Shown: piece after piece, positions 7,820-29,394 of the stretch
Layout of the letters: the number at the start of each line of letters is the position of its first letter
How positions within the stretch are numbered: position 1 is the first letter of the stretch
Source of the DNA: a virus
Taxonomy: Duplodnaviria > Heunggongvirae > Uroviricota > Caudoviricetes
Reading direction: 5' to 3' (one strand)
Virus record (IMG/VR): IMGVR_UViG_3300031952_000006
Length of the DNA stretch: 40,726 bases
Notes under the pieces: generated by a model
Told to the model about the DNA's origin: nothing
The model's database searches: none
What the model saw: only the letters and a program-made list of their open reading frames with translations
Program-made: the position numbers and the translations under genes

Positions 7820-7847
7820 ATTCCCCCTACGTCAGGGGGAATTTTTT
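7820..7847 (+). terminator. Intrinsic terminator
   Basis: attccccct-acgtc-agggggaat followed by a T-tract. Confidence 0.75.
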
Positions 7848-8575: not shown

Positions 8576-9595
8576 TTGGGTAGCATGATGGCAGACAAAA
8601 AATTGGAAAAGATGAAACAAGAGGAATATATGTCTAATGTAGATAGCACACTTGATTGGAATGAGTTCCTAAAAAAACCAACAAATCGAGTTAAAAAAAT
8701 GGCTGCACCAGCATTAGATATTCCCTCTATAGAAGACAAAAAACCTGGTGAAGCAGGATCACCTCCAGTTCCTACTGGAGGAGTACCTGTACTACCAACA
8801 GCAGACGCGCTTCCTCCATTACCAGGCGGCCCTACGGACGCGCTAGCACCGCCCTTACCGGAACCACCTAAGCCGAAAAAACCAAAAGAAAAAGATCTTT
8901 CATCGAAAGAAAAAGAAGAAGTTCTGTCATCTCTTGATGAGCTGCGTGAAACAATAAAAACTCTTAAATCTGAACTCGAAATGTCCGTAATGAAAGATGA
9001 AATTATCGAAAAGATAAAGAGTCATTACAAAGGCTTAGAAGAAGAACTAGATTCCTTAAAAAGAAAAGAGATACCAGAACGAAAGTATTTTGACACTGAG
9101 GGAGCTTACAGAGATCGTTTGTATGGAATGGCTACAAACATGTTGGATGAATTTCTTCCTGACTTATTCGAAGAAATACCGGAATACAATTTCACAGCTA
9201 CTCAGGTCAGTCGATTGTTTGAAGATGGAACAGTTGCCGATGCTCTTATTCTACTCATGGCAACAGTTCCGCGAGAAGGAATGAAGTATGATTTTAAAAT
9301 CGAAGTACCTGTTCTCAATGGACTAATGCAGTATCCGATGTATATCCAACGTGGTCAGAAAATAATCCCCCTCACAAAAGCCGAGATTCAACGAGAGCTC
9401 AATTCAATGTCGTATCGAAAGCTTGATATTGAAGAGCCCTTAAAAAAAGATAATTTATTCAATAATATCGGGGAGAACATTCATCGTAGACCGGACAGCC
9501 AAAAATGGTACGAGACTGCCCCTAATACATATAATCAGACAGCAATACCACCTGATCACATGCAGCAAGTCCAAAGAGGAAAAAGCATAAAATGA
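8576..9595 (+). CDS. Hypothetical protein with Pro-rich linker and coiled coil (possible head/scaffold-associated)
   Basis: Pro-rich residues about 60-102, followed by a heptad-rich helix. Start may be one of the downstream ATGs. Confidence 0.65.
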   Translation: MGSMMADKKLEKMKQEEYMSNVDSTLDWNEFLKKPTNRVKKMAAPALDIPSIEDKKPGEAGSPPVPTGGVPVLPTADALPPLPGGPTDALAPPLPEPPKPKKPKEKDLSSKEKEEVLSSLDELRETIKTLKSELEMSVMKDEIIEKIKSHYKGLEEELDSLKRKEIPERKYFDTEGAYRDRLYGMATNMLDEFLPDLFEEIPEYNFTATQVSRLFEDGTVADALILLMATVPREGMKYDFKIEVPVLNGLMQYPMYIQRGQKIIPLTKAEIQRELNSMSYRKLDIEEPLKKDNLFNNIGENIHRRPDSQKWYETAPNTYNQTAIPPDHMQQVQRGKSIK

Positions 9596-10253: not shown

Positions 10254-10988
10254 ATGGATAAAAAATCAGACATGGGAGTATCTGTTTCAGGTGCACCTGA
10301 TTCTTTAGCAGGAAATCTTAATTATACACTGCCTCAGAAATTTCAAGATCCCGGCACAGATATATTTAAAACAGTAGCTCCCTTTGACGTAGTACATCGA
10401 ACTCCCGAAAGAGTAGAGCTGCAATATAATGATGCGCTGAAGCCAACGGTGCTTCCGACAGATTCAAAATATGATAATAACAATAAATCAAATACCGTCG
10501 ATTCAGGAAATAAACAGGTTGGTGATACTGATTTAGCAGCTAAAGCCAATAGATCATCTATGGGATCATGGAGTATTGCTATGAATGAACAACAATTTTC
10601 GAAAGTAAGTAACATTGATTCTCTTATAAAAACTGCAGAAGACGATTCTATTAAAAAGAAAATAATGGAATGCTTCGCTAAAAATGAAAACCCACCTGAT
10701 GCAAAGATACACAAGATGGCAGAAAAACTTGGTATTGAACCTGATAAAATGGAAGAGTCTATCTACAAACTTCTATCATCTTTTTTATCTCAAGGAAAAT
10801 CAAAGGACTATACGGGTGAGTATGATCCCGAAGAATTGAGAATGGGTATTGAAGTTGAGATGGAGCATACGAATGACAGAGATATTGCAGAACGGATTGC
10901 ACGGGATCACCTCGCAGAATTCAAACACTATTATACTGCTCTTAAAAAGATGGAAGAAGGATTAAAGAATCAATCATTTGAGAAATGA
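10254..10988 (+). CDS. Phage protein with C-terminal DUF5661-like domain
   Basis: ELRMGIEVEMEHTNDRDIAERIARDHLAEFKHYYTALKKME. Possible internal start at ATG 10581 (SD ggag). Confidence 0.7.
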   Translation: MDKKSDMGVSVSGAPDSLAGNLNYTLPQKFQDPGTDIFKTVAPFDVVHRTPERVELQYNDALKPTVLPTDSKYDNNNKSNTVDSGNKQVGDTDLAAKANRSSMGSWSIAMNEQQFSKVSNIDSLIKTAEDDSIKKKIMECFAKNENPPDAKIHKMAEKLGIEPDKMEESIYKLLSSFLSQGKSKDYTGEYDPEELRMGIEVEMEHTNDRDIAERIARDHLAEFKHYYTALKKMEEGLKNQSFEK

Positions 10989-11271
10989 AATGAATACCGG
11001 AATGGTTTTTATGGATAAAGGGAGTTCCTTTAATAAAATCAGTTTTATTGTGCATATGAAAGGGCATAAGAACTCATCTGGAGAGATCGCTCCGTATGTA
11101 ATAAAATCGCACGAAACCAATAAAATTCTATCTTCTCATAAAACTCGTGGTGAAGCAGAAAAACATTTAAAACAAATGCATGCGCACTCAGGTTCGTTTA
11201 TAGGTGTAAGAAATATAGATGAACTTATTTCAGGAGGTACATATGAGCAATGTAACCTTTACCGAAGCTGA
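10978..11271 (+). CDS. Small hypothetical phage protein carrying the shared tag near its C-terminus
   Basis: YVIKSHETNKILSSHKTRGEAEKHLKQM, then FIGVRNIDELI. True start may be a few codons later. Confidence 0.6.
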   Translation: MRNEMNTGMVFMDKGSSFNKISFIVHMKGHKNSSGEIAPYVIKSHETNKILSSHKTRGEAEKHLKQMHAHSGSFIGVRNIDELISGGTYEQCNLYRS

Positions 11272-11497
11272 TTTTTCTAGCATGGACAAGAAATCAAAAG
11301 AGATGCTCGGATGGACATTTAAAGAGAAATTTGGTATGAGCATTAAAGAAATGGTTGCTGATCCGATTAAAGGACAAGATGCGATAATAGCTGCAAAAAG
11401 AAAGGCTGGCTTTGTCGATAGTATACAGATTAAGAAGATAATGGATTTTTTATCTGAGCCAGATTGGGAACAGACATTGAAGGATAAGCTTGCATAA
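11243..11497 (+). CDS. Small hypothetical protein
   Basis: Start moved to ATG 11243 (SD ggagg); stop overlaps the next ATG. Confidence 0.6.
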   Translation: MSNVTFTEADFSSMDKKSKEMLGWTFKEKFGMSIKEMVADPIKGQDAIIAAKRKAGFVDSIQIKKIMDFLSEPDWEQTLKDKLA

Positions 11498-12054
11498 TGG
11501 AAAAAGATTTGGTTATCATGTGCGATCTCGATGGAGTACTTGCCGACTTTGCCGGGAGATTCAAAGAATTTGGACACGGTACTATTGGTGCCTTTACAGA
11601 AAGGCATGATCATGATGACGCAATTCTTTGGTCGTTCATTAAGAAAAAAGATCCTGAGTTCTTTCTAAATCTCAAAATGATGTCTGATGGAAAAGAACTA
11701 TGGAACTATATCAAACAATTCGATCCTATAATCCTAACTAAAATACCTCGATGGGCGCGTGCTTCCTCAGATAAGAAGAAATGGGTTAAAAAGCATCTTG
11801 GAAATGTTAAAGTAATAACCACCACTAAAAAAGAGAAATACGTTGAACCTGATGCTATTCTTATTGATGACATGGATGAAAATCTTGAAGCATGGGAAAA
11901 AGCTGGCGGTATCGGAATAAAGCATACGTCTGCAGCGAAAACCATAAAAGAACTCAAAAAAATAATGAAAGAAATTCCTACAAAAGAGGCATCTGAACAA
12001 TACATGTTTGTAGGTATAAAAAGCATTGAAGACCTACTCGCACACGAAGCTTAG
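11497..12054 (+). CDS. HAD-superfamily 5'(3')-deoxyribonucleotidase-like protein with appended C-terminal tag
   Basis: HAD motif I DLDGVLADF; motif IV ILIDDMDENLEAWEKAGGIGIKH, typical of phage NT5C-like proteins. Confidence 0.8.
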   Translation: MEKDLVIMCDLDGVLADFAGRFKEFGHGTIGAFTERHDHDDAILWSFIKKKDPEFFLNLKMMSDGKELWNYIKQFDPIILTKIPRWARASSDKKKWVKKHLGNVKVITTTKKEKYVEPDAILIDDMDENLEAWEKAGGIGIKHTSAAKTIKELKKIMKEIPTKEASEQYMFVGIKSIEDLLAHEA

Positions 12055-12107
12055 TCTAAAAACAATCAAAAATCATTCCTTTTACAACATAACTCCCTTA
12101 AAAACAA

Positions 12108-12518
12108 ATGCGTTATCATTATATTTCAAGGATAGCACGTAGTATAATTATGCTGTATAAGGATAAACCAATGCTTACTAATCGCAAACTTACTGATCAA
12201 ATAAAAGCCATTGAACGAAGCGGACAAGCAGATGGTCGGTCTAAGGAGTATATCATGAAAGCACTTATCGGAAATACATCTAAATATGGTGAAAAATCAA
12301 TGGAACCACACAAGAAATCAATTGAGCTCGATCAAAATGATCGTACAAGTATTGAAGAAATAATAACAAAAATAGCCGGTGTTAATGATATTAGCAATGT
12401 CTCGTTTGTAACCATGAATCTTACACATAATGATTGTGTTGTAAAATTTAGCTGTGAAGAAAAAAAAGAAAAGAAGAGAACAGAGGAGATGGGAGATGGA
12501 GCAAAACTGGAGGCATGA
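12108..12518 (+). CDS. Hypothetical protein
   Basis: 136-aa ORF in operon context; no motif recognised. Confidence 0.55.
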   Translation: MRYHYISRIARSIIMLYKDKPMLTNRKLTDQIKAIERSGQADGRSKEYIMKALIGNTSKYGEKSMEPHKKSIELDQNDRTSIEEIITKIAGVNDISNVSFVTMNLTHNDCVVKFSCEEKKEKKRTEEMGDGAKLEA

Positions 12519-12519
12519 T

Positions 12520-12786
12520 ATGGCCGAAGTATTGGATGAGAGATTTAGCAGTGCTCAGTCGCTACAGGACTTAATAAAAAAAGCTGGGTCAGATACTACT
12601 ATAATTCTTACTCTAAAAGAAATTGAAGATATCATAAAAGCTATGAATGTTATTCAACAATCTGCAGCTCTTCTCCCATCTGCCCCTGAATCTGATGTAA
12701 AGGATGAGCAAAATATGATATATAGCCAACTTGATACGGTATATCAGATACTAACAAAAAAACAAAAATCAGAATCAATAGTATAA
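12520..12786 (+). CDS. Small helical hypothetical protein with shared N-terminal tag
   Basis: Start moved to ATG 12520 (SD ggagg); begins MAEVLDERFSSAQSLQDLIKKAG. Confidence 0.6.
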   Translation: MAEVLDERFSSAQSLQDLIKKAGSDTTIILTLKEIEDIIKAMNVIQQSAALLPSAPESDVKDEQNMIYSQLDTVYQILTKKQKSESIV

Positions 12787-12793
12787 GGTATTT

Positions 12794-13129
12794 ATGGCAA
12801 CATGTAAAGTATACGGATATATTGTAGATGGTTCAGAAATACCTCTTTCAGGAGTAGCTATTCAGTTTATTCCTGCAGCGCTACCTGCAGTAAACTCAAG
12901 TACAGGGAAAGCAATTGTACCGAGAACCGTTGAAGCATTTACAACATCAACAGGATACTTTGAAACCAATCTTCTAGTTAATACAGATTTTGTTGCTATT
13001 ATAAACGCACTTGGATTGAAAGAAAAAATACGAATACCTCAAGCAGTAAGCGCAAATCTTTTTACGCTTACAGGAATGTACACGAGCGGAGATCCTACAC
13101 CAGAAGATACAGGACAACCTAATTGGTAG
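12794..13129 (+). CDS. Small beta-sandwich (carboxypeptidase-regulatory/prealbumin-like) putative virion protein
   Basis: CKVYGYIVDGSEIPLSGVAIQF...TTSTGYFETNL pattern. Confidence 0.55.
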   Translation: MATCKVYGYIVDGSEIPLSGVAIQFIPAALPAVNSSTGKAIVPRTVEAFTTSTGYFETNLLVNTDFVAIINALGLKEKIRIPQAVSANLFTLTGMYTSGDPTPEDTGQPNW

Positions 13130-13159
13130 TATGATTAAAATAAAAGAGGCACTATTATA

Positions 13160-14188
13160 ATGCGCTGGGCTCATGGAGACAGACTCCCGTCAATAAAAAC
13201 AGTAATGGATCGATACCGAATATTGAATCGGATGGTCGATCGCAACCGCACCAAGATGTGGGCTGCGGGATCTCCCTGCACGTACTGGAGAAATGTATCT
13301 GTTGATAAAATGGGTGCTCTTGTTCAGAATCAAACTAAATGCTATTGCTGGGCAACCCCCGCAGGCGGAGACAGCCAGCAAAGCCAACCGGATAGAAAGC
13401 ACTTTCTTTGTATGGGAACTGGGATGTTATCTGGTTATCAAAAATATGGGTATCATGAAATAGCCCTCAGTACACCCTCAAATCTCACAAAATCTTCACC
13501 CAATCTTGTTATATCGGGTGATCGAGGAAGCAGCTACATATTGTCGGGAACAACCTTGGCAGAAACTTTGACAACAGAAAGGCTGGCCTTAACACGTTTT
13601 AAAGATGTTACGTTTTTTCTTGCAAACGAATCTACCGATAAAGATCAAAACAGAATTGAATATGAATACTCAACAGATGATATAACCTGGATTACGATAG
13701 TAATGACTGACTATGTATCTCCATTAGCTAATAAGCAAGGAGCTCTGTCACTCCCAGCAAATACTGAATATATCCGATTCAGAGTAAGACTGAAAAAAAG
13801 AGTTGCTACGGCAACATCACCTAAATGGAACAGCATTCGATTCAGATATAGAAATCATGTTATGATTAAAGAGATGGACCCAAGATTCAATTTAGCCATG
13901 CCTGCTTTTCTTGCTGCACGAGAACAACAATCTCGATACATCGAACAGGGCGAATACGGTTGGATAACGAAGTTCCCCGTTGAATGGTGGACACTTCCTG
14001 ACGCAGATATTCTTAATACAGATATAATTACATTTCTTCAAGGAACGTACTCCGGTTATAAATTTCAGGTAAAAAATCTCAGGGAATTTGCATATGGGGA
14101 GAACCTTCAAATACTACACAAGGGATTTGAAAGTTCTCTTATTCGTGATAAGAATGAGCTGCTTGGTATTATACACTATCTTATGTGA
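13160..14188 (+). CDS. Putative head-closure/neck protein with Cys-rich zinc-binding segment and central insertion
   Basis: CYCW...HFLCMGTGMLSGY resembles the C-x-C-W...C-x-x-C-x-G-T-G..GY motif of large-phage neck proteins; C-terminal barrel-like segment (PDADILNTDII...KFQV). Confidence 0.5.
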   Translation: MRWAHGDRLPSIKTVMDRYRILNRMVDRNRTKMWAAGSPCTYWRNVSVDKMGALVQNQTKCYCWATPAGGDSQQSQPDRKHFLCMGTGMLSGYQKYGYHEIALSTPSNLTKSSPNLVISGDRGSSYILSGTTLAETLTTERLALTRFKDVTFFLANESTDKDQNRIEYEYSTDDITWITIVMTDYVSPLANKQGALSLPANTEYIRFRVRLKKRVATATSPKWNSIRFRYRNHVMIKEMDPRFNLAMPAFLAAREQQSRYIEQGEYGWITKFPVEWWTLPDADILNTDIITFLQGTYSGYKFQVKNLREFAYGENLQILHKGFESSLIRDKNELLGIIHYLM

Positions 14189-14196
14189 GGATGCAA

Positions 14197-14475
14197 ATGG
14201 AATTTCAAGGAATTACTTCTATTGACGAGCTTATCAAACACGCTGATGCTAAATTTGAAACAACAGGCATTGGTTCAACTTTAGGTGGAATTGCAGGCGC
14301 AATCGTCGGTCAGTTTATTCCAATTCCTATCGTTGATGATATTCTTCTTTCATGGTTGGGCAGCAAAGCTGGTGATTGGCTAGAACGACACTTCACTGAA
14401 CCAAAGAGTGAAGAAGAAGCTAAAACTAATCTCGCAAAAGCAAAACAACTATATGAAGAGGAAAAAGGTTCATGA
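14197..14475 (+). CDS. Glycine-zipper protein with shared N-terminal tag
   Basis: Start moved to ATG 14197 (SD gagg). MEFQGITSIDELIKHA, then GxxxG repeats GIGSTLGGIAGAIVG. Confidence 0.65.
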   Translation: MEFQGITSIDELIKHADAKFETTGIGSTLGGIAGAIVGQFIPIPIVDDILLSWLGSKAGDWLERHFTEPKSEEEAKTNLAKAKQLYEEEKGS

Positions 14476-14975
14476 AATTTGCTGGAATAAAATCTCTAAA
14501 TGAGCTTCTTATCAAAGAAGGAATAGCATCTGATATTGATAATGAATTCATCGAAGATTTCACAGAAAATCTGAAAATATTTCCCGATACTGTTGAAACA
14601 ATACCCACCAGCATAGCCGGACCAGACAGAGATGTTGGTATATTTAACCCATATATAGAAGAAATGGGAGCATCTATAAAAGCAACGGCACAAATTTCGA
14701 AAGAGACTGCTTTGAGTATTGGATTGGGCCAAGGATCGATTAAAGAGTATATTGAAAATAATGCTGCAGGTGCCGTAAGAAATTTTTCAGAGCAATGGGA
14801 TATTATAGAAAAGTTATTCGTAAGTTCCATATATAATGACAGAGTTCAAAACGCAGGAATACCAATACAAGAAATAAAAGATGAGGTTAATCAGGAATTT
14901 CGCTGCAGCCTTCTTGAAATTGCTAACAGTGAAGAGGGCAGTTCATTTATATTAAAATTAGAATTTTTTGTTTAG
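14472..14975 (+). CDS. Acidic hypothetical protein with shared N-terminal tag
   Basis: Begins MKFAGIKSLNELLIKEG; ATGA overlap. Confidence 0.65.
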   Translation: MKFAGIKSLNELLIKEGIASDIDNEFIEDFTENLKIFPDTVETIPTSIAGPDRDVGIFNPYIEEMGASIKATAQISKETALSIGLGQGSIKEYIENNAAGAVRNFSEQWDIIEKLFVSSIYNDRVQNAGIPIQEIKDEVNQEFRCSLLEIANSEEGSSFILKLEFFV

Positions 14976-14985
14976 GAGATCTCAC

Positions 14986-15597
14986 ATGGTTAACAAACTG
15001 ACCTTACATCAACTTAATCTTAAATATGCATCCGAAGGGCTTGATCTTTTAAAAGCTGTTCGAGCATGGAAAGACCTTCAATTCACACCTGATTCAATCA
15101 GAGATCAAGTAAGAAATGATGTTGGTACTACTATTACCGCATCGGATGCTCGAGAACTGTATCATCTTGGATCATCAATGAAATATGATTATGATGCAAT
15201 GGCTAAACCTTATGAAGTCAGCAAGGGACGAGAAAAGCTTATCCCAGATAACATAAAAAATGAGCAGCGCAAGCTTAGCCCTGCAGTCAAAATGTCAATG
15301 GAGCGTCTTGGTCAGAATCTATATCGAGACAAAAAAGCAAAAACATATTGGACTCTCAAAGAGAAAGTTGCTGATAACGGAGAAAAAGCTGTATATCTGG
15401 TGGCTATCGAAGAACCAGATGATGTTAAAAAAACTGCAGCGTTGTCAGGTGTTGATGGAGAACCGGGTACAGCATATTCAAAAGAAAATGTAAAAGCACA
15501 GGGCGAAGAATCTCCTGAAAATCCTGTGGGAAAGTCAACGGAACCAAAAGACAAGGAGCAGTGGAAGAATGAGCTTTCAGAACACGGAAACTATTGA
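14986..15597 (+). CDS. Hypothetical phage protein
   Basis: Start moved to ATG 14986 (SD aggag). Contains NLKYAS and VKKTAA; acidic low-complexity C-terminus. Confidence 0.65.
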   Translation: MVNKLTLHQLNLKYASEGLDLLKAVRAWKDLQFTPDSIRDQVRNDVGTTITASDARELYHLGSSMKYDYDAMAKPYEVSKGREKLIPDNIKNEQRKLSPAVKMSMERLGQNLYRDKKAKTYWTLKEKVADNGEKAVYLVAIEEPDDVKKTAALSGVDGEPGTAYSKENVKAQGEESPENPVGKSTEPKDKEQWKNELSEHGNY

Positions 15598-15847
15598 TAC
15601 CCTCATAAAACAAGCTGAGCTTGAAGTACTTCTGAAGCGTGTGACAGTTGAATCAGATAGGGGTACGATTGTTACCCCTGTGCGCTGTCCTGCAAAAGGG
15701 AGGGTAGATGATTATCAACGAGATGGAGAAGGAAAACCTGCCTGTGTATATAATAACAGCAATTGTCATTATTTTGGCAGGTCTATGTTTGATCTCGATG
15801 GTTATGTTAAACAAATTATATGTACGTTTGAAGAAGGTCAAAAGTAG
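15569..15847 (+). CDS. Small Cys-containing protein with shared N-terminal tag
   Basis: Begins MSFQNTETIDTLIKQAE; four Cys in the C-terminal half; SD aaggag upstream. Confidence 0.55.
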   Translation: MSFQNTETIDTLIKQAELEVLLKRVTVESDRGTIVTPVRCPAKGRVDDYQRDGEGKPACVYNNSNCHYFGRSMFDLDGYVKQIICTFEEGQK

Positions 15848-16681: not shown

Positions 16682-18073
16682 ATGGCTGGATTAGGATATC
16701 GCTTACCAGGGACTAGAATCGAGGAGCAGACCCTCCCGCAATCAGTTAATATATCGTCTTCACAACGAATACCCTGTTTCATAGGCATTGCCAGTGACTA
16801 TATAAAAGTTACATATGAACAAGTTATTCGAAGTTCTACTGGATTAGCCGACAATTTATTGTACACTTCGGCGGGAATTCATGAAATTACGCAAGTTGGG
16901 TCTCAAAAAGGTTTGAATGACTATGTTCAAGGAACTCATTTTAATCTTGTAAATAATCAAATCGTCTGGGTATCAGCTGGAATTGTTACAATAGGAGCAA
17001 CTTACTTTGTAACATATTCCTATGACCGTCCATATGATCCAATTGATATTACTGATGTGACTAAAAATGATTATCGTTACAAAGAATTTACGAATTTTGA
17101 AGATGTTGTGACTGATCTAGGAGATGACATTCCTGAACACCCGCTTGTTATGATAGCTAAAATAGCTCTTCGGTATTACAATGTTCCGATGATAGCAACC
17201 GTACAAGTTCGGACCGGATCGTCCTCAGATTATGCAGTTGCGCTTGAGCTTATAAAATACCGTGACGTTCAAACAATTGTACCCCTTACTACGAATTCTA
17301 CAGTAAGAACATTAGTTATTAGTCATGTGACTGAAAGAAGTTTACCTGATAATATGAGAATGAGGATGGCTTGGTTTGGAACAGCAGCAGGAACTCCGAT
17401 AGGTTCTGAGTCAGATCCGACGTCTATTCGGGGAATAGCTGCGAGTGTTAAAAATGAATTGTGTATGGTTGTCAATGCAACACGAGCTAAATATTATTAC
17501 AATGATCCTGTTACAAAAGAAGAGCTGTATACAGTAGTCGATGGGTCGTTTATAGCAGCCGCACTTGCCGCATATCGTGATTCCTTCGTGTACCCATCGA
17601 CTACTTTACTCAATAGAACTGTAGCCGGTCTTGAATTATTCGATGAAGATTATGATGATTACTATTCAGAGTATCAGCTTACTTTGGCTGGTGGAAGTAG
17701 TGTATTTCTTGTTGAGTCTCTTGGTGGAGTAATGCGTGTTGTTGACGATTTAACAACTGATAATTCAACTGTTGAACGTAACAATATCAATGTTATCACT
17801 GCCAAGCACTACATTGCTAAAGATGTTGCTATTCAAATGAATAGAACCTTTAAGGGAAGACTTATTACAGATGCTGGAAGTTATACTAATACAGTATCTT
17901 CCTATCTATCGTCGATGTTTGCGGCTTATAAAAAAGCTTCTGTTATTGAAAGTATAGGAACCATAAAAGTAAATATAAGCCCAGAAAGACGTGATACCAT
18001 AGAGATACATTATGAGTATACAGCGGTGTACACGAATAAGTATATAGAAGGAACTTACTCACTTCTCGTGTAA
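16682..18073 (+). CDS. Contractile tail sheath protein
   Basis: N-terminal Y.LPGT.IEE and PCFIG. C-terminal RVVDDLTT..INVI...YIAKDV...FKG and final DTIEIHYEY...KYIEGTY strands. SD aaggag; followed by tube/chaperone/TMP genes. Confidence 0.8.
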   Translation: MAGLGYRLPGTRIEEQTLPQSVNISSSQRIPCFIGIASDYIKVTYEQVIRSSTGLADNLLYTSAGIHEITQVGSQKGLNDYVQGTHFNLVNNQIVWVSAGIVTIGATYFVTYSYDRPYDPIDITDVTKNDYRYKEFTNFEDVVTDLGDDIPEHPLVMIAKIALRYYNVPMIATVQVRTGSSSDYAVALELIKYRDVQTIVPLTTNSTVRTLVISHVTERSLPDNMRMRMAWFGTAAGTPIGSESDPTSIRGIAASVKNELCMVVNATRAKYYYNDPVTKEELYTVVDGSFIAAALAAYRDSFVYPSTTLLNRTVAGLELFDEDYDDYYSEYQLTLAGGSSVFLVESLGGVMRVVDDLTTDNSTVERNNINVITAKHYIAKDVAIQMNRTFKGRLITDAGSYTNTVSSYLSSMFAAYKKASVIESIGTIKVNISPERRDTIEIHYEYTAVYTNKYIEGTYSLLV

Positions 18074-18143: not shown

Positions 18144-19976
18144 ATGAGAGTAAATTATATGAAAGAAAAAATGTGTAGGCATTGTGGCACAAAGGAAAAT
18201 CTACGAACTAATAAGAATGGTGTCGTTTATAACTGCTGCAAACATTGCTATGAAACTATTGAAGTGCCCGATCAAATTAGAAAAGCGAATGAGAGTATTG
18301 TTGCGAAGTATGGTGTTTCTGATTTAGGAGAGCTTCGACAAAAAAGATCAAAGGATAATCCTCCAAAACAAAAGGAGAAAAAAATCGTAACATGCAAGTA
18401 TTGTGGAACAACAGAAAATCTTGTTGTAACAACAACTAAAAAGAGAACTATTTCTTTTCATACCTGTAAAGAACACTGGGAGCAGTATCAAAAAGATAAG
18501 TATGAAGTAAGAAAAAAATCTAACAAAGAAAAATTTGGAGTTGAGCAGCCTCTACAGAATAATGACATTAAAAGTAAATTCAAACAAACTATAAATAGTA
18601 AGTCTCTTGTAGAAAAAGAGAGCATTAATAAAAAAAGAGAACAAACTAATTTAGATAAGTTTGGAGTGACAAATCCCAATAAGTTAAAAGAATTTGCAGA
18701 TAAAAGAAAAAACACCCTATTAGAAAAATACAGTGTATCGAATCCTATGGAATCCGCTGAATTTAAAGAAAGGCAGAAAAAGACATTATTAAAAAATTTT
18801 GGAGTAGATAATCCTCTCAAATCTAAAGAGATAAGGGATAGAGTAAAAAAGACTAATTTAGAAAAAAGAGGAGTAGAGTACCCATCACAATCTTTAGAAG
18901 TTCAAAATAAAGTTAGAAAAGCAAAAAGAATTGTGTATTGGGACATATTTGTAATTCTTCTTAAACAAAAGAATACCCTACCTTTGTTTACAAAAGAAGA
19001 ATACATTGATGCTACCGGCGAGCTTACATATAAATGTTTAAAATGTAACTCTGTTTTTAAATCAGAAGGAACAGCTCCACAAAGAATTACCTGCTCTTGC
19101 TATCATAGAAAGTCTTTGTATGAGTATGAAATAGAAGATTGGCTTAGATCTTTAAATATAGAAAATATAAAACCAAACGAAAGACTTTTCGAAAAAGGAG
19201 AAGGTAATTTTGAAATAGATGTGTACTTACCAAACTATAATCTAGGCATAGATTTCAATGGTCTTTACTGGCATTCCAATGTATATCAAAGAAGCACGTA
19301 TCATAGAGAAAAATATATATTCTTTAAAAAGAAGAACATATCCTTTATTCAAATTTTTGAAAGTGACTGGTTGTCTAATAAGGATGTAGTGAAATCTATT
19401 ATTCTAAATAAACTCAGCTCCTCTGAAAAAATACAAGCAAGAAAATGTACCGTATCCGACGTTCCTGAAAAAGATTATATGCGCTTTTTGTCAGAGCACC
19501 ATCTACAGGGGTATGCCTCAGCAAGCATAAAGCTGGGATTATTTTTTAATAATGAATTAGTGTTTGTTATGTCGTTCGGAAAACCTCGTTTTAGTGAAAA
19601 GAAAGGATTTGAAATCATTAGATCCTGTTCTAAAAAAGGATACCTAATAATAGGTGGGTTTGATAAATTACTTTCTTATTTTGAAAATACCTATGCGCCA
19701 GAAAAATTAATCAGTTTTATAGATATTCGATACTTTAATGGAAATTCTTATAAGGCATCTGGATTTATTTTAGAACACCATACTGATCCAAACTACTATT
19801 ACTTTGATCCAAAAAACCCAACAGCCCTATTTAGTAGAATAGCCTTCCAAAAGCATAAACTCGCTGGAAAACTCAAAGTGTTTGATCCCGCTCTTTCTGA
19901 ATCTGAGAATATGTATCTCAATGGGTATCTAAAAATATATGATGCTGGAAACCTAAAGATGGTTAAAAACTATTAA
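18144..19976 (+). CDS. Free-standing Hef-like homing endonuclease (duplicated Cys motifs, K.TNLEKYGV.NP repeats, PD-(D/E)XK-like core, GNAT-like C-terminus)
   Basis: CRHCGTKENL/CKYCGTTENL; about 6 repeats such as KKTNLEKRGVEYPSQS; FEIDVYLPNYNLGIDFNGLYWHS; ARKCTV...HHLQG...IYDAGNL. Confidence 0.75.
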   Translation: MRVNYMKEKMCRHCGTKENLRTNKNGVVYNCCKHCYETIEVPDQIRKANESIVAKYGVSDLGELRQKRSKDNPPKQKEKKIVTCKYCGTTENLVVTTTKKRTISFHTCKEHWEQYQKDKYEVRKKSNKEKFGVEQPLQNNDIKSKFKQTINSKSLVEKESINKKREQTNLDKFGVTNPNKLKEFADKRKNTLLEKYSVSNPMESAEFKERQKKTLLKNFGVDNPLKSKEIRDRVKKTNLEKRGVEYPSQSLEVQNKVRKAKRIVYWDIFVILLKQKNTLPLFTKEEYIDATGELTYKCLKCNSVFKSEGTAPQRITCSCYHRKSLYEYEIEDWLRSLNIENIKPNERLFEKGEGNFEIDVYLPNYNLGIDFNGLYWHSNVYQRSTYHREKYIFFKKKNISFIQIFESDWLSNKDVVKSIILNKLSSSEKIQARKCTVSDVPEKDYMRFLSEHHLQGYASASIKLGLFFNNELVFVMSFGKPRFSEKKGFEIIRSCSKKGYLIIGGFDKLLSYFENTYAPEKLISFIDIRYFNGNSYKASGFILEHHTDPNYYYFDPKNPTALFSRIAFQKHKLAGKLKVFDPALSESENMYLNGYLKIYDAGNLKMVKNY

Positions 19977-25116: not shown

Positions 25117-28100
25117 ATGGCATCATTTCTGAAATTTGGAGTAGGTGATCCTGAACAAATTAATGGTTCCGTGTTTGGAACATTCAATGTTCAATATAAG
25201 CCAGAAGAATTTGAAAGGATACGTGAAGATGGATTTACTGTCATGGGTATGGTTCCTGATTGTCGAGTTTTTATTTATGGAGCTGAGTTAACCAAAGACG
25301 TATTGGATGTTTCTGTAAATAACTCACTGGAAGGCAACACCTGCGATATTACTCTTACTAATCCTCGCGGAAGATATGAAATAACCAAACAAGATTTAAT
25401 GGGTAAATGGCGAGAAGATAAAGATATTCTTGCCGCATATGATTATTCACAATTTAATCGCATGGCTCCGGGTTTGTTTGATAATTTCATGGATAAAATA
25501 ACAGAAACTGCTTTTGGAAAAAAAGGCGCAACGGCTATCAAACAAGGAATGAACATTGCCAGAAGCGCAAATTCTCTTATGGGCAGCGGCGGGGGTATTC
25601 CAAAAGTGCGTGGTGTTACCCGTCAAATATTTGAAACAAAACATTATAGTGGAATAACAAAGCATAATGGTGATGTAGTATTTGACTACAAAGATCCCGT
25701 CTATGTTTTCTTTAAGGGTAGATTTTCTCCATTATGGTATTTTGGATTTACAGGTATAATTACTGGTTGGGATGATTCCGACGCATATGAACAAACATAC
25801 AGTATCAAACTTAAGTGTGAAGATATTACTACTCTTTGGAAAAGATCGAAATTAACCGAACAGGGCGCAATGTTTGCCTTTTCTCGTGGAGAAGATAGAT
25901 TTAAAGGAACAAACACAGGTCAATCAACAAATCCCACTCAATTAGCAGCTACATTCAATTTTTCTGATTTAATTAAAGTTGCTGTGTATTCATATAATTA
26001 TGGATTAAAAGCATACAATTGTCATGAAAGTAATCCTGGAAAATATACAAATCCTGATGTAGGTGCGGCAGCAGTAGCAGGTGCCTCCGTTATTGGAGGA
26101 ACTTCTTTAAAATCCGGGGGATCATTCAAAAGTAAATTAAAAAAATTACAAGATGAAGCTTTCATTGATGCTCGTTATATGTTTACAAGAAGTGTTGGTG
26201 GTTGGGGAATCAGTCTTAATGGAAAATCATCTTTTAGCGGATCTAATAAAGGCGCATCTGGTAGTTCTATAAGAATCGGCAGTTTGCAAAATGCAGGAAT
26301 AATTCCTATTTCCGAAATAACATATATCCATAAAAAACAATTCAATACTAAAAAATATAAATTAAATGAATCTCCCCTTGGCCCATCGGCACCTATTTAT
26401 TTTCAGCTTAATGAGATAGAGTTTCCAGAAAAAATTGCATTTACTGGTGATAATCTAAAATCGATGCTTAATGTCTCTGTTCGCTACTGGGAAGCTGAGC
26501 ACAGCATAGCATCTTCTTTGAGTTCTGATGCATCAAATATAACTGGAACAGGATGGAAAGATAATAAAGCTTTTGGTATTGCTGGAGTTCATCCAGCGCT
26601 TACGTATGATTTTATAAGTAATTTTAATATTCTTGATGGTATCTGGCAGCAATGCTATAAATCAAAAAAAGAAATTGATAAAGTAATAATGAGTCCCAAT
26701 GATAAGATTCGTTCTACTGTTGGAGGTATGCCAACAGAACTTGTGCGAAACGATGAATTATCGAAGGCAAAATTAGATCCAATTGGAACAGCATTTAATT
26801 TTTTTAGACCACGATTATTTATAATACTTCCAAGACGATTTTCTGATAGAAATAAAAAAGCGGGTCCAGGGAAATTTCAACAATTCGAAAATCTATTTAA
26901 AGAATCAGCAACTAGTGTATATGAATTCTTAAAAGAAAAAACTAAAAGTGTTGAGTATCTCATGTATGCATCTCCTTGTGGAGATGTCTTTATAGAGCCG
27001 GAGTTATATGATTTCCATCCATTAGATTTTTCATCAAAAATAGAATCAAAAAATATTATAGTAAAAGAAGTACCAGTTAAAGTAAGAAGCTATAGCGGTT
27101 TGACAAATCAACCTGCAACTCGTCAATCAAAAGCATATATGTTTAATTCTTACGCAAACCATCCATTTTTCATAATGGAAAAGGATAGAATGCGTACAAC
27201 ACAAACATTTAATCATCAACTTATTCACACGGAGGTAACTGTAAGAGGAGGAACCATGGAAGGTGGAGGTATTCTTGAAGTAATAGATGAGCAAACTGCA
27301 GAAGCCGTAACTGCGGTAGCATCTGGTCGAATGAGTCGTGGATATAGTATGCAAACAGCTTTTGCCAATGGAGTATATGTTGCTGATGGGTTTCAAAAGA
27401 ATTTTGAGCCCACCAGTGCTGTAGCACAAACTCGCACTGCTTATGAAAAAGCACGAATTGAGTTAGATAAAACCATATTTATGGAAATGTTTTCGATAAT
27501 TGGATCTCAGCTAGTATCACAAACTGTTAAATCCTACACAAATTATATGGCAGCCTTTCCAGATGATCCAGGAGCGGCTCTGTATGATTTATTTTCCGAA
27601 GAGTCTATCCGAATAAAAAAGATTGTAAAAGATACCCTAGGAAAAGCCGTTACTGCATTAAATGATAATGACTATTTAGTAATTCTTGGAGACGAATTTC
27701 CAAGTCTTTTGCCTTCATATTCTAAAAACATGGATCAAGTACTAAATTCTGAGTTTAATAGACATCAAACAGAGAGTACGAAAGAATTCAAAACAGTATC
27801 AAGAAAGTCAGTATTTATGGAAAAACTTAAGGTTAATGAAACTACATATTCTGCCGTTATAGATATGATAACTGATGGAAGCTACAATCCAAAAGATGAA
27901 TCATTTGCTTTAGTACGAGATATGATTCGATTGGGCACTCCATCTGTCATAAACACTGTAATGGTTAAACCAGTTGCAGATGCAACAATAAAAGCACTAA
28001 AAGAATATAATATACGAGGGGGTTCACAAATTTTAATCAGAAACATAGCAGAAGAGAAAAGAGCTGCTCAGCTAGGCATCTATGATCCTCGTTATGATAT

Positions 28101-29394
28101 GGTAAAACATTACGGATACAATCCAAAGGAACCTCTTAAAAATACATTTATAAAAAATGGTAGTGAAGCGTACGATTATGCACGAACAGTATTTAATAGA
28201 CTACTGGGGAAAGCATTTCAAATAAGTATGGATATTATAGGAAGGCCTGAATTCATGTTAAATCGTCCATATTATTGTGAAAGAAAAGACTCAATCGGAC
28301 TTCTTACAAAATATTCTATCCGCTATCAAGTTCAATCGGCATTTACGTCATCAGCAACACTCGAATATGTACGTAAAAATGCTATAACATTTAATTATTC
28401 TATGGGTGATTTAGATCCATTTCAAAGCTCAGCTAATAATAAATATTTTAAAGCACAGGCAGATTACTACTATAAACTAAATCGATTTGCTACTAATTTT
28501 GCAGGTAGAACAACTGATGCAATAACTGGAGGTGTTGCTGGAAAAAATCCAGGATTTGGCAGAGCCCTAGGAGCAAAAGTTGTGGGTAACGCTGCTTCAA
28601 AACTTATGGGTAGCTTACTTCCAGCAGGTGGTGTATTTTCAATGCACGATAGAATAGGACATATTCCGTTTGATACTCGTTTTTCGGACAGCACAACAAC
28701 AACGACTGCCTTACCAGGAAGTCTTCCTGGAGATACAAATGCAGATAAGTCAATTAAAGGCTCATCTATGGCAGCTCTATATGAAAAAACTATACAGATT
28801 TCTCAAACACTAGAAAATAGAAAAACTAATGAAGTTAAAAGAGATCAATACAAAACAGAAGGTAAGCAAGTACAAGTTGATATTCTTCAGGATATCAAAA
28901 CAATAGATGAAAAGAATAAAACACTTAGTACTCTTCCTGTAAATCAAGAACGTATCACTCTTATAAAAGAAATAAGAGCATTAGAAATTAGTATTACCAA
29001 GAAACAATCGAATTATAAAGCCAAAGAAACAGAGTATAAATTAGCTCTTACGGCTATAGATGAAGCCAATAAATTACTTTATGGAGTTCCTCTTGATAAA
29101 CGGACAGATATAAGTAATATTGTTTTAGCTACGTATAAAGCAGTACGACCTGGTGGAAGAATTACAGCAGATTCTGCACTATATTCAAATGGGTTGTTCT
29201 ATCAATTATTTGAAATATATATGGCACGTAGCGTTCAACTTGTTCCCGATCAATGGTACATTGATGAAAATAGTAAACACACAGTTAAATTTGAAGGTTT
29301 GGCTGAGAATATTACATTTTATATTTTAAGAAAGCAAGCACCCCCTGCTGTAGCTAAGAGCGGATCAAGAGGTAGAACTACAGCGATTGCCTAG
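25117..29394 (+). CDS. Large baseplate hub protein (gp27/gp44-like) with long insertions
   Basis: VLDVSVNNSLEGNTCDITLTNP, FTGII, IKLKCED, ASPCGDVFIEP, ISMDIIGRPEF.LNRP; between initiator and spike. Confidence 0.65.
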   Translation: MASFLKFGVGDPEQINGSVFGTFNVQYKPEEFERIREDGFTVMGMVPDCRVFIYGAELTKDVLDVSVNNSLEGNTCDITLTNPRGRYEITKQDLMGKWREDKDILAAYDYSQFNRMAPGLFDNFMDKITETAFGKKGATAIKQGMNIARSANSLMGSGGGIPKVRGVTRQIFETKHYSGITKHNGDVVFDYKDPVYVFFKGRFSPLWYFGFTGIITGWDDSDAYEQTYSIKLKCEDITTLWKRSKLTEQGAMFAFSRGEDRFKGTNTGQSTNPTQLAATFNFSDLIKVAVYSYNYGLKAYNCHESNPGKYTNPDVGAAAVAGASVIGGTSLKSGGSFKSKLKKLQDEAFIDARYMFTRSVGGWGISLNGKSSFSGSNKGASGSSIRIGSLQNAGIIPISEITYIHKKQFNTKKYKLNESPLGPSAPIYFQLNEIEFPEKIAFTGDNLKSMLNVSVRYWEAEHSIASSLSSDASNITGTGWKDNKAFGIAGVHPALTYDFISNFNILDGIWQQCYKSKKEIDKVIMSPNDKIRSTVGGMPTELVRNDELSKAKLDPIGTAFNFFRPRLFIILPRRFSDRNKKAGPGKFQQFENLFKESATSVYEFLKEKTKSVEYLMYASPCGDVFIEPELYDFHPLDFSSKIESKNIIVKEVPVKVRSYSGLTNQPATRQSKAYMFNSYANHPFFIMEKDRMRTTQTFNHQLIHTEVTVRGGTMEGGGILEVIDEQTAEAVTAVASGRMSRGYSMQTAFANGVYVADGFQKNFEPTSAVAQTRTAYEKARIELDKTIFMEMFSIIGSQLVSQTVKSYTNYMAAFPDDPGAALYDLFSEESIRIKKIVKDTLGKAVTALNDNDYLVILGDEFPSLLPSYSKNMDQVLNSEFNRHQTESTKEFKTVSRKSVFMEKLKVNETTYSAVIDMITDGSYNPKDESFALVRDMIRLGTPSVINTVMVKPVADATIKALKEYNIRGGSQILIRNIAEEKRAAQLGIYDPRYDMVKHYGYNPKEPLKNTFIKNGSEAYDYARTVFNRLLGKAFQISMDIIGRPEFMLNRPYYCERKDSIGLLTKYSIRYQVQSAFTSSATLEYVRKNAITFNYSMGDLDPFQSSANNKYFKAQADYYYKLNRFATNFAGRTTDAITGGVAGKNPGFGRALGAKVVGNAASKLMGSLLPAGGVFSMHDRIGHIPFDTRFSDSTTTTTALPGSLPGDTNADKSIKGSSMAALYEKTIQISQTLENRKTNEVKRDQYKTEGKQVQVDILQDIKTIDEKNKTLSTLPVNQERITLIKEIRALEISITKKQSNYKAKETEYKLALTAIDEANKLLYGVPLDKRTDISNIVLATYKAVRPGGRITADSALYSNGLFYQLFEIYMARSVQLVPDQWYIDENSKHTVKFEGLAENITFYILRKQAPPAVAKSGSRGRTTAIA

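Follow-up and report, generated by a model that had tools for sequence, protein, structure and literature searches.

A short peptide tag on otherwise unrelated neck-region proteins of an uncultured giant myovirus: a candidate signal for loading into the prohead

The internal proteins IPI, IPII, IPIII and Alt of phage T4 carry a capsid-targeting sequence (CTS; Mullaney and Black 1996 as described in PMC7411985, PMC3012670). In phage P1 the N-terminal signal of DarB suffices to send a reporter into the capsid of a myovirus, the natural cargo being a large enzyme that acts in the next host (PMC9024508). N-terminal propeptides of head proteins in the giant phages SPN3US and phiKZ have been proposed to target the prohead as well; these are long (111 residues in gp47) and are removed by a protease at defined sites (PMC7411985). 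Outside phages, encapsulin targeting peptides with the consensus DGSLGIGSLKG load diverse enzymes into an HK97-fold shell (PMC7925596). Here we describe a 16-residue peptide, the tag, with the consensus M-x-F-x-G-I-x-S-I-D-E-L-I-K-x-A, which is borne by seven proteins encoded in a stretch of 40,726 nucleotides (the window) from a virus of the Caudoviricetes (IMG/VR record IMGVR_UViG_3300031952_000006). The window is part of the genome of an uncultured giant myovirus. An earlier reading made from the sequence alone had proposed that the tag is a capsid-packaging signal; we analysed the tag, its cargo proteins and its genomic setting in the window and in related metagenomic phages.

The tag in the window and in related phages

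The regular expression F..[IVAT].[SNT][IL]..L[IL] was run over the six reading frames of the window and matched exactly the seven sites given by the sequence-only reading, all on the + strand (Table 1). Residue-shuffled gene products gave a mean of 0.056 chance matches (maximum 2 in 2000 shuffles), so that the seven observed matches lie far above the background rate; mononucleotide-shuffled window DNA gave 0.89 matches on average. Since the expression was composed after the data had been seen, and is thus fitted, more weight is carried by an independent profile test. A profile built from the seven window copies alone picked up this peptide in related phages, and did so only on the coding strand; opposite-strand frames scored at most about 5.8 bits. 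With an enlarged profile the seven window copies scored between 16.7 and 30.5 bits, copy 5 having the top score, and no other site in the six window frames scored above 6.2 bits. The motif search that had been suggested as a check thus found the tag to be specific.

The similarity between the copies resides in the protein. The DNA sequences encoding the seven tags have a mean identity of 51% overall and 39% at third codon positions, and Leu10 is encoded by four different codons, which bears out the claim of conservation at the protein level. This low identity also ruled out a DNA-level repeat or regulatory element. When the tag was masked, no pair among the seven proteins was found by BLASTP at E<1, and their description as otherwise unrelated was therefore correct. 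A wrong-frame artefact was ruled out as well, because all copies lie in long open reading frames (ORFs) except for two or three mini-ORFs.

Table 1. Tag copies and neighbouring features of the window, and order of tag and domains in proteins with DUF5661.
Feature	Position	Strand	Description
Tag copy 1, FSKVSNIDSLIKTA	10596..10637	+	internal, residues 115-128 of the 244-aa ORF 10254-10988
Tag copy 2, FIGVRNIDELISGG	11197..11238	+	residues 74-87 of the 97-aa ORF 10978-11271
Tag copy 3, FVGIKSIEDLLAHE	12007..12048	+	C-terminal, residues 171-184 of 185, NT5C/HAD 5'-nucleotidase ORF 11497-12054
Tag copy 4, FSSAQSLQDLIKKA	12544..12585	+	residues 9-22 from ATG 12520; ORF end 12786
Tag copy 5, FQGITSIDELIKHA	14203..14244	+	residues 3-16, protein from ATG 14197 to 14475
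Tag copy 6, FAGIKSLNELLIKE	14478..14519	+	residues 3-16 of the 167-aa ORF 14472-14975
Tag copy 7, FQNTETIDTLIKQA	15575..15616	+	residues 3-16 of the 92-aa four-Cys ORF 15569-15847
342-aa neck protein gene	13160-14188	+	stopper-type core with inserted beta-sandwich like a carbohydrate-binding module (CBM) or discoidin, residues 98-232
Tail sheath gene	16682-18073	+	phrog_279, E 1.7e-15; end of neck region
Intrinsic-terminator-like hairpin	7820..7842	+	after the 311-aa gene; consensus scan
Window DUF5661 protein	10254-10988		tag, then DUF5661
P0317			tag, DUF5661-like, tag
P0311			GHKNS domain, tag, DUF5661-like, tag
P0316			tag, CCA enzyme, tag, DUF5661
G002 DUF5661 protein	L018 1804-1049		DUF5661, tag

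The relatives sampled were four large IMG/VR records and the neighbourhoods of homologues of the 342-aa neck gene. In these, about 40 copies of the tag were counted, all in coding frames, and in about two thirds of them the M of M-x-F is the initiator Met. C-terminal copies are present in the window NT5C and in the window protein with the copy at 11197, as well as at L001 8167 and L020 4064; internal copies, some of them between domains, are the window copy at 10596 and those at L002 3137 and 7875 and L047 8936. When 1.84 billion representative proteins were searched with a profile, 24 matches had E<=0.001, of which 19 begin at residue 1. The placements that had been proposed for the window held for the four N-terminal and two C-terminal copies. 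The copy at 10596, which had been placed just after a possible internal start, is internal and lies between two modules, because the 112 residues preceding it are conserved in the homologues P0317 and L001 7855-8214.

Relatives of the window were encountered in metagenomes. A blastn search with the region and a tblastn search with the 342-aa protein against 50,697 phage records gave no match, and the sheath and capsid proteins match distant jumbo phages only, such as phage G, Rctr197k, phiRSL1 and Erwinia Y3. In Rctr197k, whose capsid protein is 37% identical, the tag was looked for and not found. Tag-only mini-ORFs of 20-37 residues were observed at L046 7538-7597 (20 aa), in P0312 (37 aa) and in G002 near 8783, one of them beginning at a TTG that shares bases with the stop codon of the gene before it. 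Such mini-ORFs may be what is left of lost cargo genes, or may encode free competitor peptides.

A position-by-position consensus was derived from 39 non-redundant copies. The most constant positions are 13 (I/L/V, 38/39), 8 (S/N/T, 37/39), 12 (L, 37/39) and 9 (I/L, 36/39), followed by 14 (K/R, 34/39), 3 (F, 33/39), 5 (G/N/S, 31/39), 11 (E/D) and 16 (A/S) with 30/39 each, 6 (I/V, 29/39), 10 (D/E/N, 28/39) and the Met at position 1 (22/39). The helical moment of positions 8-18 averages 0.52, compared with 0.29 +/- 0.14 for shuffled sequences, and in this respect the amphipathic character ascribed to the tag was supported. The pattern S-x-x-E at positions 8-11 is a classical helix N-cap, and an AlphaFold2 (AF2) model of the tagged 92-aa protein has a short helix at residues 9-14, predicted with low confidence. 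The tag is best explained as a short extended segment (F-x-G-I) followed by a helix cap (S/N/T) and an amphipathic helix (I-[DE]-[ED]-L-[ILV]-K-x-A). Genome-specific variants of the tag, as would arise by co-evolution with one receptor, were considered and rejected since the signal was too weak (identity 0.388 within and 0.365 between genomes, permutation p about 0.05).

Cargo proteins and companion domains

Consistent with the portability that had been proposed, the tag occurs at either end of proteins from many families while being conserved at the protein level, and it lies outside the catalytic domains. The window NT5C (phrog_2643, PF06941) is 59% identical over the whole catalytic domain to its orthologue in L002 (6764-7318). 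The tag and a three-residue prefix ([ED]QY) are C-terminal in the window protein (EQYMFVGIKSIEDLL) and N-terminal in the L002 protein (DQYKFSNIKSIDELI), which indicates that the tag was retained through a change of end. From the sequences, this switch looks like the expected product of a tandem duplication with subsequent deletions, and it resembles a circular permutation. The orthologues of G002 and G003 have an N-terminal tag, and those of L001 and L013 have none.

Other enzymes are tagged in the relatives. DUF5662 proteins carry the tag in L001, L002 and G002, CCA-adding enzymes in L002 and P0316, and a protein resembling AAA_33 and polynucleotide kinase has an internal copy; many of the further tag-headed proteins are orphans. 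The DUF5662 of L002 forms part of a fusion with an HD domain and a CCA-adding enzyme. In G002 the tagged DUF5662 gene (L016 4902-6614, minus strand; G002 26901-28613) is interrupted by an intein with a C2H2 zinc-finger insert, and the presence of an intein suggests that DUF5662 is an important enzyme. Most cargo bodies had no PHROG or Pfam match.

The smaller cargo proteins of the window differ in their distribution. The body of the 92-aa four-Cys protein, encoded two genes upstream of the sheath gene, is conserved across the clade and carries the tag in nearer relatives only; in the family members from L001 and L002 the tag is set apart from the body by a long low-complexity linker. Its AF2 model had a predicted local distance difference test (pLDDT) score of 67, and a fold search with it gave nothing above Z 2. 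The body of the protein starting at ATG 12520 has no homologue in any fetched locus, and the sole homologue of ORF 14472-14975 in these loci, L001 11497-12000, is likewise N-tagged. In total, three window cargo proteins have a body without a homologue in the relatives, while the structural genes on either side are conserved. The protein encoded at 14197-14475 contains a GxxxGxxxGxxxG glycine zipper in a hydrophobic segment, as in ejection and tape-measure proteins. Its body gave weak PHROG matches to hydrophobic regions of tail-lysin and tape-measure-like proteins, and this cargo resembles an ejection protein.

Two small domains recur next to the tag. Pfam DUF5661 was found at residues 193-235 of the protein encoded by ORF 10254-10988, and in this protein and four others from relatives DUF5661 or a DUF5661-like domain is combined with one or two tags (Table 1), an arrangement of the sequences that suggests multivalent assembly. 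The co-occurrence is not clean: DUF5661 was undetected in G001 and G004 and is present in the tagless Rctr197k, so that DUF5661 was ruled out as an obligate partner of the tag. No mention of DUF5661 or DUF5662 was found in the literature. The second domain, characterized by the motif GHKNS...SSHKT, is small and conserved and precedes the tag in ORF 10978-11271. The same order is found in L018 3115-2738 (G002), L047 8774-9493 and L046 7974-8591, all between portal and protease genes, and the tag is always downstream of the domain. Either DUF5661 or the GHKNS domain could be the receptor of the tag.

Genomic setting and possible function

The tagged genes of the window surround the gene of a 342-aa protein for which AF2 gave a model with a pLDDT of 83. 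With VIA-align its core (residues about 18-95 and 233-329) matched the phage neck and stopper proteins 8vhx_F (Z 9.0), 8gtf_M (Z 8.8) and 9jlf_C (Z 8.7), which makes the earlier assignment of neck genes plausible, and the insert matched 9euf_0 (Z 12.0). The protein has an invariant Cys/His cluster (C40, C61, C63, H81 and C84). Judged from the model, the neck may bear this protein as a collar that faces outward or as a ring that binds sugar. The gene has 81 metagenomic homologues with 39-99% identity, and of the 12 non-redundant phage loci fetched, 8 have at least one tagged gene adjoining this stopper-type neck gene. The exceptions were L006, L007, L011 and L013, where no tag next to the neck gene reached the 9-bit cut-off of the profile; the enlarged profile adds a weak match of 9.3 bits at L007 9538.

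The tagged genes of the window overlap neck genes or directly adjoin them. A consensus scan gave no convincing + strand terminator between 7842 and the sheath gene, and because no terminator was detected before the sheath gene the tagged genes and the neck genes are probably part of one transcript, as far as the sequence tells. Directly 3' of the sheath gene, a gene for a 610-aa HNH/homing endonuclease is inserted (18144-19976; phrog_3339, E 3e-116). The start of the window encodes a protein with Metallophos and B_lectin domains (118-1431) followed by a second protein (1496-2251); both had been called lipoproteins in the sequence-only reading.

The link to head genes comes from the relatives. 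The head module of G003 was recognized with PHROGs, which identified the portal (phrog_16240), the protease (phrog_18299) and the major capsid protein (phrog_2522, E 6e-55). The interval between the portal and prohead-protease genes contains tagged genes in G002, G003, L046 and L047, and the window genes at 10254, 10978 and 12108 are homologues of genes from this interval, in agreement with the connection to head genes that had been proposed. The protease family phrog_18299 adjoins the portal and capsid genes in the same four phages; the head genes themselves lie outside the window, and comparison with L047 places the major capsid gene probably just upstream of it. No scaffold gene was recognized. 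The capsid protein P0165 is named HK97-fold major capsid protein by NCBI, and the capsid family comprises 181 proteins. Searches of the four relatives with Pfam Peptidase_S77, Gp23, Phage_capsid and Peptidase_S78 gave no match, the head genes being found by PHROGs, and a search of PDB sequences with the protease profile gave no meaningful match. The portal of G003 (L032 13686-17981; G003 213686-217981) is a protein of 1431 aa of which the first ca. 400 residues match portal profiles. The remaining stretch of about 1000 residues, a C-terminal extension, is a candidate for an internal hub. Further conserved candidates for the receptor of the tag are the 593/677-aa proteins encoded between protease and capsid gene and the beta-sandwich insert of the 342-aa protein.

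The tag is almost certainly a portable peptide module under selection that mediates a protein-protein contact. As to the purpose of this contact, we tentatively prefer loading into the prohead by a signal analogous to the T4 CTS, a possibility that the analysis favors without making it probable. The tag would bind one common receptor in the assembling head, for which a scaffold or core component, the portal and the capsid protein are candidates, and any protein bearing it would be incorporated into the prohead. The variable cargo, consisting of small orphans together with NT5C nucleotidase, CCA-adding enzymes, the polynucleotide-kinase-like ATPase and DUF5662 proteins, would then be packaged and would probably enter the next host together with the DNA. 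Loading would proceed as for the T4 CTS but would be independent of the position of the tag in the protein. What we infer are the steps themselves: that the tag binds a head component, that its cargo is encapsidated and ejected into the host, and that the tag may be cleaved. The preference is based on the position of tagged genes in head and neck regions, their coupling with late structural genes, the turnover of cargo, and the precedents of T4 and P1.

Several observations weigh against this proposal. In G002 a series of six consecutive tagged genes, all starting with MNF..., is located at 25.3-30.1 kb, about 60 kb from the neck genes, and more copies occur at 108.8 and 136 kb. The tagged NT5C gene of G003, at 76.9 kb, is about 50 kb away from the neck genes. 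The claim that the tag is found only between neck genes is therefore true of the window but does not extend to the relatives. Furthermore, position 11 is Glu in 19, Asp in 11 and another residue in 9 of the 39 copies, which leaves no invariant site of the protease type. The tagged window proteins are acidic, and the T4 internal proteins are basic. The T4 propeptide is strictly N-terminal, whereas this holds for four of the seven window tags and about two thirds of the copies overall, and the C-terminal and internal copies have no T4 counterpart. Finally, recurrent cargo includes RNA-repair and nucleotide enzymes (CCA-adding enzyme, kinase and HAD phosphatase), to which an intracellular complex is equally suited. 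A complex prediction based on G002, with the capsid protein (A4), the prohead protease (A6) and an alignment of 36-residue tag segments (A5), returned no answer (score 0.00) and counts neither way.

The main rival to prohead loading is a docking peptide that assembles RNA-repair enzymes, nucleotide enzymes and small accessory proteins into an intracellular multi-enzyme complex on one hub, for example a DUF5661-type protein or an 'HK-domain' protein. We consider this less likely, though it deserves to be taken seriously. It would account for the recurrence of CCA-adding enzymes, AAA_33/polynucleotide-kinase-like ATPases, NT5C/HAD phosphatases and DUF5662 among the cargo, for the multivalent look of proteins in which one or two tags are joined to DUF5661 (P0317, P0311, P0316, window 10254 and L018), and for the distance of the six-gene array in G002 and of NT5C in G003 from head and neck genes. 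It does not explain why tagged genes of four relatives lie between portal and prohead protease, why those of the window are interleaved and translationally coupled with neck genes, or why the conserved 92-aa family of the structural module bears the tag. Many cargoes are moreover tiny orphans lacking an enzymatic domain, and the irregular co-occurrence of DUF5661 and tag (G001, G004, Rctr197k) also speaks against such a hub.

The tag could alternatively be a site recognized by an enzyme, either for docking or cleavage by the prohead protease at propeptide and domain junctions, or for covalent modification, for example by the ubiquitin-like system of the genome. In favour of such a site, the tag core [IL]-x-[ED] is similar to L/I-x-E, the site of the T4 prohead protease gp21, the clade has a conserved prohead protease family, and internal tags occur at module junctions (window 10254, the 1061-aa protein of L002, L047 and P0316). 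We nevertheless regard this explanation as unlikely given the variability of position 11 described above, and tags at the extreme C-terminus (window NT5C and L001 8167) leave nothing to remove. The conserved Lys14 is replaced by Arg in 5 of the 39 copies, which counts against modification and ruled out a lysine-acceptor site, and the annotated neighbours of tagged genes include no modifying enzyme.

That the tag has no addressing function, and is a relic of common ancestry or a junction left by cassette recombination and kept as a harmless helix, is in our view very improbable. Such an origin would agree with the tag-only mini-ORFs or remnants (L046 7538, P0312 and G002 8783) and with the location of tags at cassette boundaries in tandem arrays. 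It is at odds with conservation at the protein level with free third positions across phages whose neck protein is only 45% identical, with the preservation of the NT5C tag after switching terminus, and with the acquisition of the tag, along with an inserted linker, by the old structural 92-aa family; there is also no DNA-level repeat that could drive recombination. Least credible is a membrane-targeting amphipathic helix usable at either end, as in MinD, FtsA and MreB: the amphipathic character, the placement at either terminus and the one cargo with a hydrophobic glycine zipper fit it, but known membrane-targeting helices are basic whereas the tag has an acidic polar face (D/E at positions 10 and 11) and a single basic residue, and F3, G5 and S8 are too precisely conserved for generic lipid binding.

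Prohead loading can be extended to a more specific and speculative model, which we consider unlikely as a whole. The tag, DUF5661 and the GHKNS domain would form a multivalent dock-and-lock system in which proteins containing both receptor and tag self-assemble into a prohead core that recruits any tagged protein. A kit for tRNA and nucleotide repair (CCA-adding enzyme, kinase, HAD phosphatase/NT5C and DUF5662) would thus be pre-loaded and injected as an immediate counter to host defences that damage tRNA or deplete nucleotides.

If loading into the head is correct, the tag would join the T4 CTS as a second natural capsid-addressing system defined by its sequence, found in a lineage of uncultured giant phages unrelated to T4, and it would work from either protein end or between domains, which the T4 tag does not. 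The injected proteins of unculturable phages could then be listed from genomes alone, the pre-packaging of RNA-repair and nucleotide enzymes would be a possible counter-defence strategy, and a compact tag would be available for loading proteins into phage capsids. If the tag serves an intracellular hub instead, it would still be a short linear motif not described before, by which a dozen proteins in each genome are organised.

Comparison with known targeting systems

Like the phages described here, SPN3US and phiKZ are giant phages; they have many internal or ejection proteins. The tag itself differs from the propeptides of those phages by being short and by having one shared consensus, none having been found described for theirs (PMC7411985). 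The resemblance to encapsulin targeting peptides consists of hydrophobic anchors separated by Gly, a Ser-Leu pair and a Lys (G-I-x-S-[IL]...K here, G-I-G-S-L-K in encapsulin cargo). Encapsulin peptides are extended and mostly C-terminal, whereas the tag is mostly N-terminal and continues as a helix, and the full consensus is not matched; the similarity over about five residues (G-I-x-S-[IL]) may be due to chance. Encapsulation peptides of bacterial microcompartments (BMCs) are amphipathic helices of about 18 residues that are located N-terminally, C-terminally or between domains, are joined by a linker and recruit enzymes into the shell. The tag is similar in its amphipathic helix and in its free placement at either terminus or between domains. 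No BMC shell genes were noticed in the loci examined, and BMC domains were absent from the Pfam matches listed for neighbouring genes, although no search aimed at them was made.

As in the T4 CTS system, one short peptide is common to unrelated proteins and mostly lies at the extreme N-terminus, the cargo genes are diverse with fast turnover, a probable prohead protease is encoded in relatives, and loading into the prohead with delivery alongside the DNA is proposed. Cargo turnover is likewise reported for the internal-protein loci of T-even phages (PMC3012670). No sequence similarity between the two peptides is visible by eye. The T4 CTS ends in an L/I-x-E cleavage site, whereas [IL]-x-[ED] is located inside the tag and has Glu in only 19 of 39 copies. 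The lineage is also unrelated, with an HK97-fold capsid protein (phrog_2522) and without a Pfam Gp23 or S77 match in the four relatives. The T4 analogy drawn from the sequence therefore survives as regards a shared peptide on diverse cargo, and fails as regards strict N-terminal placement; the tag also has no invariant Glu. The Dar proteins of P1 have no N-terminal consensus (PMC9024508); unlike them, the proteins described here share one consensus, which is found on many proteins per genome.

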